This document shows, piece by piece, positions 2 to 10,006 of a DNA stretch of 10,006 nucleotides. Below the pieces are notes generated by a model. That model was not told where the DNA came from. It was given only the letters and a program-made list of their open reading frames with translations, and did not search any database. Origin of the DNA: Octopus vulgaris (taxonomy: Eukaryota); contig CATOCA020000065.1 in NCBI GenBank assembly GCA_951406725.2, forward strand, positions 1 to 10,006, given 5' to 3'. A program made the translations under genes and the position numbers. The first letter of the stretch is position 1. Each line of letters starts with the position of its first letter.

Positions 2-1677
2 GAGGGACCAGCTATCCGAGTTGATAGTTCCGTGGTAGCTAAGGCAATTAGAAGCATGAAGACAGGGAAAGCCCCAGGCCCATCAGGAATTACTGCAGAG
101 ATGCTCAAAATATCTGGCAGTGTCGGCTATAACCTAGTCACCCGTATAGTCAACCAGGTGATACACGAAGGAGTCATACCCAATGACTGGTGCAGCAGCA
201 TACTAGTCAACTGCTACAAAGGTAAAGGTGATGCCCTAGATACAAATAATTACAGAGGTATCAAGCTGTTGGATCAAGTAATGAAGGTTACGGAGAGGGT
301 CATAGCCCAACTAATTAGAGAGAGAGTTAGTTTAGATGAGATGCAGTTTGGGTTCGTGCCAGGGAAAAGTACCACTGATGCTATATTCCTGGTAAGGCAG
401 CTGCAGGAGAAATACCTAGCCAAAGATAAGCCCCTGTACCTGGCTTTTGTTGACATGGAGAAAGCTTTTGATAAAGGTCCCCCGATCCCTTATCTGGTGG
501 TCAATGAGGAAACTAGGGATAGATGAATGGCTGGTGAGGACTGTGCAAGCCATGTACAGAGATGCCATAAGTAAGGTTAGGGTTGGCAACATGTACACAG
601 AAGAATTCAAAGTAGAGGTTGGGGTCCACCAGGGTTCAGTACTCAGCACCCTCCTATTTATCATAGTCCTCCAGGCAATTACGGAGGAATTCAAGACAGG
701 TTGTCCCTGGGAGCTCCTCTACGCTGACGACCTTGCTCTTATTGCTGAGTCACTATCAGAGCTGGAGGAGAAGTTCCAGGTGTGGAAGGAGGGTTTAGAA
801 TCGAGGGGCCTTAGAGTCAACCTAGCTAAAACCAAAGTACTAATAAGTAGGAAGGTAGACAATCCACAAATGTCTTCAGGAAGATGGCCCTGCTCGATCT
901 GTAGAAAAGGTGTAGGTAGAAACTCTATAAGATGTACCCAGTGTAAGCTATGGACACATAAGAGGTGCAGCAATGTCAAAGGTAGGCTAACTGGGAAGAT
1001 AGTTTTTGTATGTGGCAGATGCTCGGGAGCATTAACCTCCGAAAATCTGCAGAAAACAACTTCCGTCACTTTCCAGGGGGAAAAACTAGAAGTAGTTGAT
1101 AGCTTCCGTTATCTAGGTGACCAAGTCAGTAGTGGGGGTGAGTGCGCTGAAAGTGTAACTGCTAGAATAAGAATAGCCTGGGCAAAGTTTAGGGAGCTCT
1201 TACCTCTGCTGGTGACTAAAGGCCTCTCGCTCAGAGTAAAAGGCAGACTGTATGATGCGTGTGTACGAACAGCCATGCTACATGGCAGTGAAACATGGGC
1301 CGTGACTGCTGAGGACATGCGTAAGCTCGTGAGGAATGAAGCCAGTATGCTCCGATGGATGTGTAATGTCAGTGTACATACTCGACAGAGCGTTAGCACC
1401 TTGAGAGAAATGTTGTACCTAAGAAGCATCAGTTGTGGTGTGCAAGAGAGACGATTGCGCTGGTATGGTCATGTGGCGAGAATGGATGAAGATAGGTGTG
1501 TGAGAAAGTGCCAATCCCTAGCAGTTGAGGGAACCCGTGGAAGAGGTAGACCCAGGAAAACCTGGGACGAGGTGGTGAAGCACGACCTTCGAACTTTAGG
1601 CCTCACTGAGGAAATGACCAGCGACCGAGATCCTTTGGAAATATTCTGTACGTGAGAAGACCAGGCAGGACAAGTGA
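2..1677 (+). pseudogene. Frameshifted reverse transcriptase ORF of the RTE LINE
   Basis: The frame is open from position 2 (EGPAIRVDSSVVAKAIR...). An extra A at 473-475 breaks KAFD/KVPRSLIWW. A second extra base at ~1631-1633 breaks DRD/LWKYSVREKTRQDK*, whose inferred natural stop is TGA 1675-1677. No in-frame stops otherwise. Confidence 0.88.
891..1022 (+). other. PHD-type (C4HC3) zinc finger coding segment inside the RT domain
   Basis: CSIC-x10-CTQC-x4-HKRC-x14-CGRC, with a W two residues before the His. It is in frame between GLRVNLAKTKVL and GEKLEVVDSFRYLG. Confidence 0.8.
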
Positions 1678-3660: not shown

Positions 3661-3699
<39 letters not shown>

Positions 3700-3718
3700 G
3701 TATATGTATATGTATATA

Positions 3719-3807
<89 letters not shown>

Positions 3808-3808
3808 A

Positions 3809-3853
<45 letters not shown>
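3661..3853. repeat. (TA)n microsatellite with (TATATG)n interruptions
   Basis: Read directly from the sequence. Confidence 0.97.
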
Positions 3854-3857
<4 letters not shown>

Positions 3858-3870
3858 AAATAAATAATAT

Positions 3871-3994
3871 AAAATAAATATAAGAGAGTGGTCACTATAT
3901 TAATCACTCTAGCACCAGTTAATCCAAAAGGTTTCAACCACGAAGATACATGTTTCCCATGAAAGCCAGTACGACTGTTAGCTCACACGGACAG
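3871..3994. repeat. 124-bp direct repeat, copy 1
   Basis: aaaataaatataagagagtgg...gctcacacggacag is identical to 4403-4526 on manual comparison. Confidence 0.95.
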
Positions 3995-4024
3995 GGCAAA
4001 TAAAAAATAACAAAAATACAGATT

Positions 4025-4106
4025 ATTTTGGGACAATTGTTTCGCTATTAATGAATTAAATGTAACATTACTTACAATAATCCATTTGTAGCTCTTCAGC
4101 CAAGAC
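4025..4106 (-). ncRNA. Type I hammerhead ribozyme (PLE-type, extended helix II)
   Basis: Minus strand reads GUCUUGG-CUGAAGA-GCUA[long imperfect hairpin]UAGC-GAAA-CAAUUG-UC^CCAAAAU. Core is intact, helix III is the palindrome ACAAUUGU, the triplet is GUC, and predicted cleavage is between 4032 and 4031. Confidence 0.85.
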
Positions 4107-4402
4107 TATCTGGATGAAATCCACTCAATCACACGCCAGATTTTACCATAACGATAAATACGCGTGCGGTTCAATTGATTACATCGGACGTTATAATTCA
4201 AATGCCCCAACCAACAGCGCGCCAAACTCACACGGAAAACAAATACAGCATTTAGAAATAAATGCAGCATAATTATAATTAATTAATAGGGTGAGAGAAT
4301 TAGATACTAATTTAATAGTATATTTATTCCACACCAAGTGGCCTAGTGCTACGAGAAACCTGGATTATTATAATATTTTATAACATATTATAATATTTTC
4401 AC

Positions 4403-4526
4403 AAAATAAATATAAGAGAGTGGTCACTATATTAATCACTCTAGCACCAGTTAATCCAAAAGGTTTCAACCACGAAGATACATGTTTCCCATGAAAGCCA
4501 GTACGACTGTTAGCTCACACGGACAG
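4403..4526. repeat. 124-bp direct repeat, copy 2
   Basis: Identical to 3871-3994, with a 408-bp spacer between the copies. Confidence 0.95.
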
Positions 4527-4552
4527 ACCCGTTGAATTCTTCAGCCACCGGT
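4446..4552 (-). ncRNA. Degenerate type I hammerhead-like motif
   Basis: Minus strand reads ACCGGUGG-CUGAAGA-AUUCAACGGG...UUCGUGGUU-GAAA-CC UUUU GG-AU-UAACUGGU. Helices I, II and III are recognisable, but conserved U16.1 reads A and helix II has mismatches. Confidence 0.42.
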
Positions 4553-4657
4553 TCTCAACATACACTGATAAACAGTTTCGCCATGGGCTCTTAGGAGCAT
4601 AGTTCGATTTGTTTTTGCTCCGCCTCTGTTCTGTTTTTGTTTTTCCAACGGATTTCC

Positions 4658-4750
4658 TATTTTCTTCCTGAAGAGAAAGACACAATATGGTCCCATTATT
4701 CCATCGATTTTGGTAATTTGTGCCTTTCGAAACACGTGTAGAATGAAATA
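4658..4750 (+). ncRNA. Type I hammerhead ribozyme (PLE-type)
   Basis: UAUUUUCUUC-CUGAAGA(4668-4674)-GAAAGACACAA...UUGUGCCUUUC-GAAA(4729-4732)-CACGUG-UA^GAAUGAAAUA. Helix I pairs 9/10 and helix II 10/11; helix III is the palindrome ACACGUGU. GUA triplet, predicted cleavage after 4740, AATAAA at 4747-4752. Confidence 0.9.
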
Positions 4751-4796
4751 AAACGATTTCTGTTCAATCTGCGTTCAGCTCCATTTCTTCAATTCA

Positions 4797-4800
<4 letters not shown>

Positions 4801-4857
<57 letters not shown>
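4801..4857. repeat. (TA)n microsatellite between two convergent HHR-bearing element ends
   Basis: Pure TA run. Confidence 0.97.
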
Positions 4858-4860
<3 letters not shown>

Positions 4861-4926
4861 GGTCCCGGGTTGATTCGGGGTTAACCACAGTAAGTAAGGT
4901 ACTCAATACATAGCAGAGTAAAATTA

Positions 4927-5226
4927 ATTTATTATATAGAAGGAGCTTCTACAGGACTAGTACTGTTTCATTCAAGAGAAATCTTCAGGAAGCTATTTAA
5001 CAAGAATTGTATTAGCATTTATACATTTAGGCAGGTTTAAAGGAGTGGTGGTGGGGGACTTTTGGGGGTAGGCATAGCGCAAAATATCATACTTGGGGGA
5101 GTGGTCAAGGAGTCAGTGGTAAGTTAGATGAAAGAATAGATAAATAAAAAAAAAAAATAAAAATAAAAAAAAATAAAAAATATATATAAAAAAATATATA
5201 TATATAAAAAATATATATATATAAAA
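4927..5226 (-). repeat. Inverted repeat, left arm (pseudo-LTR)
   Basis: Reverse complement of 8246-8566; the inner A-rich boundary is approximate. Confidence 0.93.
4944..4994 (-). ncRNA. Minimal type I hammerhead ribozyme, copy A
   Basis: Minus strand reads AGCUUC-CUGAAGA-UUUC UCUU GAAU-GAAA-CAG UACUAGUC CUG-UA^GAAGCU. Helix I is a perfect 6 bp, helix III is near-palindromic, the triplet is GUA, and helix II is weak (3 bp closed by U-U). Confidence 0.82.
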
Positions 5227-5274
5227 AAAGGGGGGATAGAGTTATAGGTAAATAAGGAGATTCTCACTTATACT

Positions 5275-5318
5275 TATACACATATGTATACGTATCTACA
5301 CACACACACATATATATA

Positions 5319-5362
<44 letters not shown>

Positions 5363-5818
5363 TATATACACATATACATACATATCTACATACACACATA
5401 CATACACCCGCCCACATGTACAAATTTATACACATGCACATGCATATACCTGTCTACACATACACACACGTATATATGCATACACTCACTCCCATGCATG
5501 CACGCATACACACATGTATATATATATATACACACGACCACACATACATATATACACAGAAAAAAATATATTCATACGCACATACACTCATGCACACACA
5601 ACACACCTAGTTCCCTATATACACATATTTACACCTATATATACATACACCCACATACACACATGTACATATATATATATATACACATATATATATATAT
5701 ATACATATACACGCATACATATATATACATATATATACATGTGTGCACATACATACATATACACATATACATACACACACACATACACATGTGTACCTAT
5801 ACATACCTACACATACAC

Positions 5819-5865
<47 letters not shown>

Positions 5866-6254
5866 CCAATACAGGCCCATTCCCTAATTTTAATTTAATT
5901 ATTTTCATTTATTACTTTTGTTATCTTTGATCGCTAGAGCTAAGGATCCTGGCAATGGCAGCATGTCCATTTGTCTGTCTACTAGAAGGCAAGTACTCAT
6001 TCCCGCACGCACACTCATTAGCACGTACATTCACCCATTCGTACACTCATACACATACACGTACGCACGCGTTATATTCATACATACAAACATCTACATA
6101 CGTTCACGTATATACACATACGTACTCGTACCTACAGATTCGTGTCTACACTTTAGGAGGCTAGTCTATACATATACACCAATAAATATACATATATATA
6201 TATACACATATACATACACACACACACATATACTTCTACATACAGATACATACC

Positions 6255-6306
<52 letters not shown>

Positions 6307-6522
6307 CATACATACACATACACACACACATATATATACACACACATACATACACATATATATACATACACAAACATATATACACACATATATATATATA
6401 TATATATACACACATACACACACATACATACATATACACACAAACACATACATACGTATACATACATACATACATCCATACATCCATACTTACATGCATT
6501 TATACGCATACACACACCCCCA

Positions 6523-6565
<43 letters not shown>

Positions 6566-7065
6566 TCACACATACATATACAAATATACGCACACACATA
6601 CATACATACACGTATACGCATACACGCACATACACATATACATGCGTACCCATACACGTGCACACACGCACGTGCATCCATATATATACACACACACACA
6701 TATATACACGTGTGCAAGCATACATACATACTCATACACGCACACATACTTACATATACATATATGCACACACTTACACACATATATACATACACATATA
6801 CATGCATACATACATATATGCATACATACACATACACGCACATACACATATACATGCGTACCCATACACGTGCACACACGCACGCGCATCCATATATATA
6901 CACACACACACATATATACACGTGTGCAAGCATACATACATACTCATACACGCACACATACTTACATATACATATATGCACACACTTACACACATATATA
7001 CATACACATATACATGCATACATACATATATGCATACATACACACACACGCGCACTCATATATAC

Positions 7066-7096
<31 letters not shown>

Positions 7097-7269
7097 CATA
7101 TATATATATATACATATATACACATACACATACATACACACATACATATACATACACATACATACATATATATACATATATACACATATATACACATATA
7201 CACATACATATATACACATATACATACATATACATACACATACATATACACTGATACACATACCCATAC

Positions 7270-7302
<33 letters not shown>

Positions 7303-7388
7303 TATACACATGCATATACTTATATCTCACATACTCACATATAAACATATATATATATACACACATACATATATACATACATGTACAT

Positions 7389-7461
<73 letters not shown>

Positions 7462-7713
7462 TATACACATATACATGTATACATACGCAATAATGATACA
7501 CATATATACACATACACACACACAGACAGATGCATATACATACATATATATATAAATTACATATCTATATAAATACATACATAATACACATATACACACA
7601 CATATATATACATTCATGCATATACATATACAAGTATACATACACATACATACACACACACGCGCACACATACATATACACACACACATATACAAATACA
7701 TACATACACACAT

Positions 7714-7746
<33 letters not shown>

Positions 7747-7780
7747 CATACATGTACACATATACATATGTATATATATA
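5275..7780. repeat. Degenerate (CA)n/(TA)n/(CATA)n low-complexity array
   Basis: CA/TA-rich on the + strand throughout, with a more unique island at ~5861-6185; source of the long Y/I/H/T ORFs. Confidence 0.93.
6619..7042. repeat. 212-bp tandem duplication (2 copies) inside the CA/TA array
   Basis: The landmark catgcgtacc occurs at 6641 and 6853. Copies are 6619-6830 and 6831-7042; one substitution noticed (cacgtgcatcc vs cacgcgcatcc). Confidence 0.88.
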
Positions 7781-7989
7781 TCAACAAGGGAGGGTAAAGT
7801 TAATTAGTTATTAATCAATTTCATCAAGTGTTCAGTATGTAAAGGGACCATTATTATTTTGAGTAAACAATGTTAGAGGGAAAAAAATTCTCTAAGTAGT
7901 GGAAGAGGCTAAAAACTTTATTGGCTGCTATTTCTAGAAAGTTTAGTATGTGGCAAAGTAATTTATTTTATTTTCCTAAGCCCTAATTA

Positions 7990-8110
7990 TATAATATTTT
8001 ATACATACACATACATAAGCACATACATTTACACATACATATGCATATACATATATACACATATACATACAAACACATATACACATATACACACACACAC
8101 ACATACAAGC

Positions 8111-8159
<49 letters not shown>

Positions 8160-8245
8160 AATATATATACATATATATCTTTACATGCATACATACACAC
8201 ACACACACATAATACATGCGTATATTCCTACTGTACCCATGCATA
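7990..8245. repeat. CA/TA microsatellite
   Basis: Read directly from the sequence. Confidence 0.9.
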
Positions 8246-8566
8246 TTTTATATATATATATTTTTTTATATATATATATATTTTTTATATTTTTTATATT
8301 TTTTATTTTTTTATTTATTTTTTTATTTTTTATTTTTTTATTTTTTATTTATCTATTCTTTCATCTAACTTACCACTGACTCCTTGACCACTCCCCCAAG
8401 TATGATATTTTGCGCTATGCCTACCCCCAAAAAGTCCCCCACCACCACTCCTTTAAACCTGCCTAAATGTATAAATGCTAATACAATTCTTGTTAAATAG
8501 CTTCCTGAAGATTTCTCTTGAATGAAACAGTACTAGTCCTGTAGAAGCTCCTTCTATATAATAAAT
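8246..8566 (+). repeat. Inverted repeat, right arm (pseudo-LTR)
   Basis: Reverse complement of 4927-5226; ends immediately after AATAAA (8560-8565) and runs into (TA)n. Confidence 0.93.
8499..8549 (+). ncRNA. Minimal type I hammerhead ribozyme, copy B
   Basis: AGCUUC-CUGAAGA(8505-8511)-UUUCUCUUGAAU-GAAA(8524-8527)-CAGUACUAGUCCUG-UA^GAAGCU; identical to copy A, predicted cleavage after 8543. Confidence 0.82.
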
Positions 8567-8642: not shown

Positions 8643-9037
8643 CTAACAGTATCGCCCGGCGTTGCTCGGGTTTGTAAGGGAAATAATTATATAAGCATTT
8701 TTAGAGATGTAAAGTATAATAGCCATCTCAATATGGCTAACCACAAAGGGGGAGGGGTGTTACTGTAGCTTTTTACGTTCTGAGATTTAATAATAAATTT
8801 TAGAGAGTTACTTCCCTTATATATGTCAAAAATGGATTAAAAATGGGAAAAATTGATGGTAAATTTTTTTTTAAATCGTAGCCTCATCGTAGACGCGCGC
8901 TAATACCCAGACGGTCTCGATATGAATCACGACTATAAGATACCCGGTTTTGGTTAAACTGCACCGCAAAATGTGGGAGTAGTTAGGAATGTAAATCGTA
9001 GGAGACAGACACACAACCTCACTTTTATATATAAAGA
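8643..9037 (-). mobile_element. Non-autonomous Helitron (395 bp)
   Basis: Minus strand starts TCTTTATATATAAAAG (5' TC at 9037-9036) and ends ...CCCGAGCAACGCCGGGCGATACTGTTAG, i.e. a GC-rich hairpin ~11 nt before a CTAG-like (TTAG) end. It is flanked by A and T with no target duplication and has no Rep/helicase ORF. Confidence 0.85.
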
Positions 9038-9142: not shown

Positions 9143-9465
9143 TTACAGAGATGTACTTGCATAGCAAGTGACTTGATCTGAGATCGTGTGTTGGAACGAA
9201 AACAGTTGCAGCGTTGAAGGTGTTTATAAGCCATTTAAGAAACACACAAAAACCGTTAGATTCACTTCAACATTTAAATTTAATTTGTCAAAATATTTTC
9301 GTCGCTTTGAGACCGCGACCTGTTAGCACGATATTTTTGTCAGTGAACAGGTCGCGGTCTGAAAGCGACGAAAATACTTTTGGCAAATTAAATTTAAATG
9401 TTGAAGTGAATGTAACGGTTTTTGTGTGTTTCTTAAATGGCTTACAAACACCTTCCACGCTGCAA
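9143..9465. mobile_element. Fold-back insertion: inverted pair of truncated PLE-like termini with a one-sided 3' extension
   Basis: Arms 9206-9324 and 9346-9465 are reverse complements (5 substitutions and 1 indel counted) with a 21-nt spacer. The left arm extends ~63 bp further (9143-9205). TA repeats lie on both sides and the right arm carries an HHR-like fold. Confidence 0.7.
9336..9387 (+). ncRNA. Candidate variant type I hammerhead ribozyme (G3-C8 core swap, extra G after A9)
   Basis: UUUGUCA-GUGAACA-G-GUCGC GGUCUGAAA GCGAC-GAAA-A UAC U-UU^UGGCAAA. Helix I is 7 bp (perfect UGACAAA in the other arm), helix II is a perfect 5 bp, and helix III is minimal (palindromic AAUAUU in the other arm). 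Confidence 0.6.
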
Positions 9466-9834: not shown

Positions 9835-10006
9835 AGACCTGGTAGAAACAGCAGCCAAATTTCCCCCAAATCACACCTTACTGTCTTATCTATGTATATA
9901 TATATGTATGAGCCAATGAGGGGGACCTCTACATGGTAGCTAGACCTGGTAGAAATAGCAGCCAAATTTCCCCCAAATCACACCTTACTGTCTTATCTAT
10001 GTATAT
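9835..10006. repeat. Direct repeat of at least 65 bp with period 107 (9835-9899 and 9942-10006)
   Basis: agacctggtagaaa(c/t)agcagccaaatttcccccaaatcacaccttactgtcttatctatgtatat occurs twice with one mismatch; the second copy is cut by the window end. Confidence 0.92.

Follow-up and report, generated by a model that had tools for sequence, protein, structure and literature searches.

How do several hammerhead ribozymes (HHRs) come to lie within about one kilobase of octopus DNA, on both strands? A sequence-only reading of this locus had counted four different motifs between positions 4025 and 4994 and offered two explanations: a hotspot where several families of Penelope-like elements (PLEs) pile into one (TA)n region, or a composite non-coding mobile unit that would cut transcripts from either strand. 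The window analysed here is an entire unplaced contig of 10,006 bases from an assembly of 2.8 Gb and 227 contigs. We consider it likely that the cluster consists of three separate insertions in (TA)n, from families named here A, B and C and probably placed by a PLE reverse transcriptase (RT)/GIY-YIG protein, that a target deletion brought A and B together, and that in family C the RT jumps a nick and leaves scars.

The surroundings are rich in TA, CA and ATC repeats, a landscape that appears cephalopod-like, and the repeat-finder output is dominated by simple repeats. Among the other sequences of the window are a frameshifted fragment of a LINE-type RT followed by a PHD-like finger (2-1655, plus strand; Pfam RVT_1, E 2.8e-14), an imperfect, MITE-like inverted repeat of about 220 bp (9226-9445) to which sequence flanking another locus (L270) is similar, a non-simple segment amid TA tracts that is probably another dispersed repeat (8643-9037), and, where the contig ends, a directly repeated stretch of about 65 bp (9835-9900 and 9943-10006).

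Which of the four motifs are real? HHRs were sought with a structure-aware scan that requires the core and three helices, with 2,000 dinucleotide shuffles as control. A full type I HHR was found at the CUGAAGA positions 4099 (-), 4668 (+) and 4988 (-), with predicted cuts after 4032, 4740 and 4950. These are HHR1 of family A (4025..4106, minus strand, cut 4032/4031), HHR3 in the HHR-bearing repeat, or pLTR, of family B (4658..4750, plus strand, cut 4740/4741) and HHR4 of family C (4944..4994, minus strand, cut 4950/4949, with 4994 as the first base of stem I). All three motifs that had been called intact were thus recovered with matching cuts. Shuffling gave none in 1,979 cases and one in 21. 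A fifth HHR, identical to the 4988 motif, lies outside the cluster, with its CUGAAGA at 8505 (+) and its predicted cut at 8543/8544. HHR1, 3, 4 and 5 all show the type I features (CUGANGA, GAAA and UH core, helices I-III, open helix I), and in HHR4 a U.U mismatch opens helix II at its base. A palindromic helix III, named in the sequence-only reading as a mark of Penelope-like pseudo-LTRs and retrozymes, is present in HHR1 (ACAAUUGU) and HHR3 (ACACGUGU), which are predicted to fold as dimers only, and not in HHR4, whose helix III of 4 bp is predicted to fold as a monomer. The long helix II, short helix I and 1-2-bp palindromic helix III of previously described HHRs recur in A and B, whereas C differs in its monomer-folding helix III.

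The fourth motif, read as a degenerate HHR at 4446..4552 (-), does not hold up. It fails the scan, and its core and helices do not lie within one element: the CUGAAGA half is antisense family B and the GAAA half is family A, fused at 4526/4527. Since intact B copies run on upstream in B sequence, this motif is a non-ribozyme chimera over a junction found once in the assembly. The genuine motifs are each present in well over a thousand copies. Compensatory changes in stem I of HHR1 are seen in two diverged A relatives, from UUGG/CCAA to UCUA/UAGA (L128) and UCGG/CUGA (L211), the variants being few; no covariation was seen in the hammerhead helices of B or C among family members. Rfam gave no HHR in 3870-4795, nor among the 150 of 257 whole-window matches listed, where only microsatellite-driven miRNA noise appeared; both HHRs of the 3870-4795 stretch were missed.

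Genome searches with 3880-4800, 4527-4800 and 4858-5140 as queries retrieved, besides the window, 87 partly overlapping loci with 1.5-kb flanks, 29 for each family. Matches to the first query end at its base 647, which is window position 4526, and return with a period of 533 bases; this defines family A. The second and third queries each retrieve a separate set of near-identical copies, which define families B and C. The ribozymes occur as exact patterns 2,165 (A), 1,800 (B) and 3,930 (C) times in the assembly, and the reversed controls not at all. Mutual alignment of the three families gave nothing beyond two 21-nt AT-rich matches.

Laid out along the window, a (TA)n/(TATATG)n target tract (3661..3870) is followed by the family A arm (3871..4526, minus strand), 1.2 units of a non-coding tandem retrozyme with a tail-less 3' end at about 3871 and a 5' truncation at 4526. 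Head-to-head with it, across a junction with 1-nt microhomology (4526..4527), lies the family B arm (4527..4802, plus strand), the 5'-truncated, tail-less 3' end of a 3,624-bp PLE. A (TA)29 target tract (4800..4857) separates B from C. The tailed arm of C (4858..8243, minus strand) is the 3' part of a 5,104-bp PLE and comprises a 65-nt tail (4858-4922), the pLTR and a 3' UTR of about 3 kb; it is followed by an inverted, tail-less arm (8243..8566, plus strand) that carries the fifth HHR and ends in (TA)n. A reading of 4930-8560 as a TIR element or MITE was rejected: the inverted repeat is the inverted arm of the PLE.

The linkage to PLE RT/GIY-YIG reading frames that had been suggested is found for B and C, while A has no parent pLTR in the loci examined. 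Family B is an autonomous PLE in tandem units, with an intact RT plus GIY-YIG ORF of about 895 aa (L091:6661-9360, minus strand) and many further full-length ORFs without stops. The ORF of C, seen at L093, likewise holds RT and GIY-YIG but is frameshifted. Both families have the structural marks of PLEs, namely tandem pLTRs, an inverted 5'-truncated arm, a one-sided tail and an HHR in the pLTR, and their proteins match at 41% over 492 aa. Pfam gave no significant match for the B ORF; among the Atlas neighbours, GIY-YIG/HTH_animal appears on a minority of members. Further long PLE-like ORFs lie beside C insertions at L100:3453-5796 (781 aa) and L113:7869-9783 (638 aa).

PMC8557442 describes Hydra-clade PLEs by an RWK-like motif, DKT, a CxCX5C linker, CxxC/CxH, no CCHH and (TA)n targets. 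A single ORF with RT and C-terminal GIY-YIG and an HHR in the pLTR are common to them and to B and C, and their arms, tandem and inverted with 5' truncation and a tail on one side, are as here. Judged by its predicted protein (RWRS, SDKT, CNCHDKTTC, CDLC...E...N...CMH; no CCHH), C carries the marks of this clade, including the CxCX5C linker and the (TA)n targets. The B ORF (RWLI, SDKT, CNLC...CPH; no CCHH) has a long low-complexity linker instead of CxCX5C, and B is for this reason called Hydra-like and not a clade member. Its insertions nonetheless lie in (TA)n, and that linker has been proposed as the guide of TA targeting; if true, family B would be a case of TA targeting without the linker zinc finger. 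The sizes given there are usually below 3 kb and the tails 30-40 nt, which both families exceed with 3.6 kb (B) and 5.1 kb (C), as do the tails found here (65 nt in C, about 130 in A and about 160 in B). Family C is further unlike the usual members described in its 3' UTR of microsatellite-like sequence and in its many fold-back insertions, a large class here called minis. The 3' UTR (5140-8243), with a 212-bp internal repeat inside, is conserved among copies; what appears to be a host microsatellite is part of the element, and PLEs may be spreading simple-repeat DNA.

How are these insertions built? In every family, copies end 3' at two fixed points within (TA)n, one tailed and the other tail-less. 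By hand count, every two-arm insertion with both ends in view pairs a tailed with a tail-less arm (22 of 22 for B, 32 of 32 for C and 12 of 12 for A). The count leaves out duplicates, B rows that a locus edge cuts off and rows in which the pLTR leads on into an ORF, and 20 of the C loci were retrieved by a tail-bearing query. The C insertion of the window (4858-8566) obeys this rule. Arms diverge less within than between insertions, by 0.39% versus 1.8% in B and by 0.92% versus 1.4% in C, where the within-insertion value is inflated by homopolymer indels and only modestly lower. For the anole PLE PAc, PMC11167929 reports that both strands are cut at AT-rich DNA and that two internal RT starts downstream of the HHR set the tail; the two fixed 3' ends seen here match these two priming sites and the double-strand cut.

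Family C carries two further footprints. The first is a scar at the predicted cut. Copies altered at the first base after it number 355; a control G, seven bases upstream, is altered in 37. Among the first 100 of the 355, counted by hand, 51 had lost both G of GAAG, 33 the first G, 7 had other indels and 9 substitutions; the 37 control changes were 30 substitutions, 6 deletions and 1 insertion. Substitutions are therefore similar at the two positions (about 32 versus 30) and indels about 50-fold apart, with longer fixed flanks in the control pattern. Exact copies of the commonest scar number 161, and 30 of them, inspected individually, fall on at least four subfamily backgrounds and on tailed as well as tail-less arms, 29 of the 30 in minis. 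The partner arm never had the same scar (0/30): 28 were intact at the cut and two had a different scar. Because the scar sits in single arms only, scars would arise per arm, during copying. Inheritance from one master copy was rejected, given the scar-free partner arms and the several backgrounds, and so was mutation of a palindrome at the DNA level, since the scar position is fixed and the palindrome centre varies. No cut-site scar was seen in 309 read-outs of A or 145 of B (overlapping loci), in line with dimer-only folding of their helix III and the ability of C's to fold alone, as treated in PMC4209133. The double-G loss of the commonest scar has no clear mechanism and counts against a reading by cleavage, as do the scar-free copies of A and B and the finding that PAc could dispense with cleavage in vitro.

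The second footprint lies at the start of the arms. Of the 3,930 C copies, as many as 1,250 start precisely on the first base of stem I of the HHR, with a non-T before it, versus about 1% expected from substitution. Ten back-to-back inverted pairs that were fetched are minis of about 200 bp, ordered (TA)n-tail-HHR-inverted HHR-(TA)n. When 29 arms with this start were inspected, 27 belonged to fold-back minis, one joined (TA)n via an extra G and one joined other DNA; none had a long partner arm. A non-genomic G ahead of the start is needed in at least 7 of the 29 and is ambiguous in 7, where the partner arm may supply it; at locus L315 a lone extra G stands directly against the target TA. Relative to 4994, a TATAAA that is a candidate TATA box (5018..5023, minus strand) spans -29 to -24, and an ATG follows at +183. 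We infer that 4994 would be the transcription start of C and the minis double copies of the mRNA leader. Short arms of B start within -5 to +8 of the predicted cut in 4 of 19 cases (L129, L171, L172, L180), with several others at -89 to -95, too few to claim a pattern.

These footprints suggest a mechanism. The endonuclease would cut both strands within (TA)n, and each DNA end would serve as primer for a cDNA of one shared RNA, begun at either of two internal positions downstream of the HHR (in C, roughly +72 and +137 relative to 4994). Microhomology would then join these cDNAs head-to-head. The C mRNA likely starts at the first base of the HHR, as the TATA at -29 and the extra G at arm starts suggest, and priming on its 5' leader rather than on the 3' pLTR would yield the fold-back minis. 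Where the HHR had already been cut, the RT would jump the nick, sometimes leaving a scar. A fuller version, in which a capped C mRNA starts at the HHR, the ribozyme removes the capped 45-nt leader in vivo, the RT primes both ends on one RNA and crosses the nick, the roughly 1,250 arms and 320 indels are the fossil record of this process, and B targets TA without the linker finger, has in our judgement an even chance of being right.

Could the same patterns arise at an intact ribozyme? The alternative that survives best accepts the independent pile-up and ascribes the patterns of C to an RT that pauses or slips at a folded, uncleaved HHR; cDNA snap-back at stem I would produce the -45 starts and strand displacement the deletions, and neither a promoter at 4994 nor cleavage in vivo would be involved. 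Stem I does end exactly at -45, where the 3' end of a new cDNA can pair with the copy of the 3' strand that the cDNA already contains, and about half of the -45 starts are simple palindromic overlaps (48 A, 49 G and 3 C in the first 100, by hand count); unprocessed RNA is also the main substrate in the anole PLE, according to PMC11167929. Pausing would, however, leave unaccounted for the concentration of indels on the first base after the cut, the TATAAA at -29 and the lone G abutting target TA at L315. Pausing alone does not predict that short arms pair with short ones (0/27 long partners), and the stems I of A and B are comparable yet scar-free. We regard this alternative as unlikely.

Cleavage during copying would set C apart from the anole PLE. 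In PMC11167929, HHR cleavage of the Poseidon element PAc of Anolis is dispensable in vitro and no RNA reads end at the cut, whereas the genomic scars of C instead point to cleavage during copying. Self-cleaving 5' ribozymes that aid translation are on record in PMC13725137, which cites R2/LINE HDV-like ribozymes. C would likewise have a ribozyme in its putative 5' leader, upstream of the ATG, with the difference, predicted from DNA, that its HHR would strip a capped 45-nt fragment off a Pol II transcript.

Family A is a tandem retrozyme by its layout. Its unit measures 533 bp (532 in the window, where 3880-3994 repeats at 4412-4526), is low in GC and contains no ORF; units stand in tandem, each with one type I HHR and no LTR, in arrays that reach at least 11 identical units among the loci examined. 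This fits the definition of non-LTR retrozymes in PMC7229834 and bioRxiv 10.64898/2026.07.22.740005, although A is larger than the invertebrate range of 170-400 nt. The arrays differ from those known from these sources in their PLE insertion anatomy, with inverted arms, a tail and TA targets, which is direct evidence for PLE-type mobilisation. A search for an autonomous parent with a pLTR covered the retrieved loci together with the units of B and C and gave only A-type relatives of 67-88%.

What joined A to B? The pair breaks the arm rule, as both its ends are tail-less. At L136:1145-4150, a B arm and an older C-type insertion that lacks its tailed end are joined in one orientation, which again leaves both ends tail-less, and at L139 a cut LINE is the partner of an A arm. 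Inspection of 18 single-arm loci shows most arms joined straight to (TA)n; a B arm at L132:6550-6813 has a 5' junction with an inverted copy of flanking target DNA. Given that both mixed-family joins are tail-less on both sides and that L139 joins a LINE, a later insertion with target deletion would be the likeliest origin of the A|B join.

Two other origins have been weighed. The join could be a single event in which two DNA ends were primed on different RNAs, with B as the mobiliser of A. Its geometry and 1-nt microhomology resemble those of inversion junctions within families, the A and B arms are 99-100% identical to young copies, L136 offers a second mixed join, and in one C mini (L258) the arms differ at one subfamily site. 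Two tail-less ends, however, never occur in the 66 single-family two-arm insertions, the L136 elements differ in age and share one orientation, L139 shows that joins to unrelated DNA occur, and A and B have no common sequence; we find this origin improbable. As a general scheme, arms from different RNAs are not supported either, L258 being the one discordant C site and the other differences nearly all homopolymer indels. The junction might also be an assembly or chimeric-read artefact, the window being a whole unplaced contig of 10 kb. None of the contig pieces listed bridges 4526/4527 (590 more lie beyond these), which makes an artefact possible, and pieces from four sequencing runs stop at 4526 and go on in their own family; the summed depth of A and B is very high. 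Against this, L136 and L139 show similar joins on contigs of chromosome scale, low depth would be expected at a single-copy junction, and most contig pieces are outside those listed. An artefact thus seems quite improbable as well.

The three families are young and independent of one another. No two of the three window segments occur together in any of the 87 other loci, one B locus having a 73% A-type relative about 1 kb off, and a 27-mer that spans the A|B junction has a single match in the assembly. A composite multi-ribozyme unit that cuts transcripts of either strand, to which the proximity of the motifs in the window had pointed, can be set aside for this assembly with near certainty, as the junction is unique, the segments do not co-occur, each extends elsewhere into its own element and the fourth motif is not an HHR. 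The proposal of independent families piled into a (TA)n region is borne out, with A as a tandem retrozyme and B and C as 3' arms of PLEs.

Is such a cluster unusual? In 40 arbitrary 10-kb stretches (400 kb; L218-L257), 14 HHR-like motifs were found against 1-4 in five shuffles, a net density of about 12 per 400 kb or one per 33 kb, from many families with differing palindromic helix III loops. Two of the 40 stretches held two independent insertions within 500 bases. Extrapolation gives about 85,000 HHR-like motifs in the genome (41,000-152,000), at which density about 20 clusters of three insertions would be expected even with uniform placement and without TA targeting. The pile-up is therefore real but ordinary for this genome, and to call it a hotspot was an overstatement.

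Much of what the locus contains is already in print: HHR-bearing PLEs, retrozymes, TA targeting, tails and opposite-strand HHR pairs, the last recorded in Schistosoma at distances of 100-700 bp. No description of cut-site scars or of minis anchored at stem I was found in the open-access literature; supplements S1 and S2 of PMC8557442 may list the families. The function of the HHR in EN+ PLEs is called 'still unclear' in that paper. With the cluster itself ordinary, the value of this locus lies in the footprints of family C. The model for C gives exact predictions, with a start at 4994, a cut at 4950/4949 and priming near 4923 and 4858, and the intact, apparently active ORF predicted for B could be used for biochemistry. 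If the model is true, the excess of scars would amount to genomic evidence for cleavage of the transposition RNA by a PLE hammerhead in vivo and for an RT that can cross the break, and the footprints would make such cleavage in vivo directly testable.
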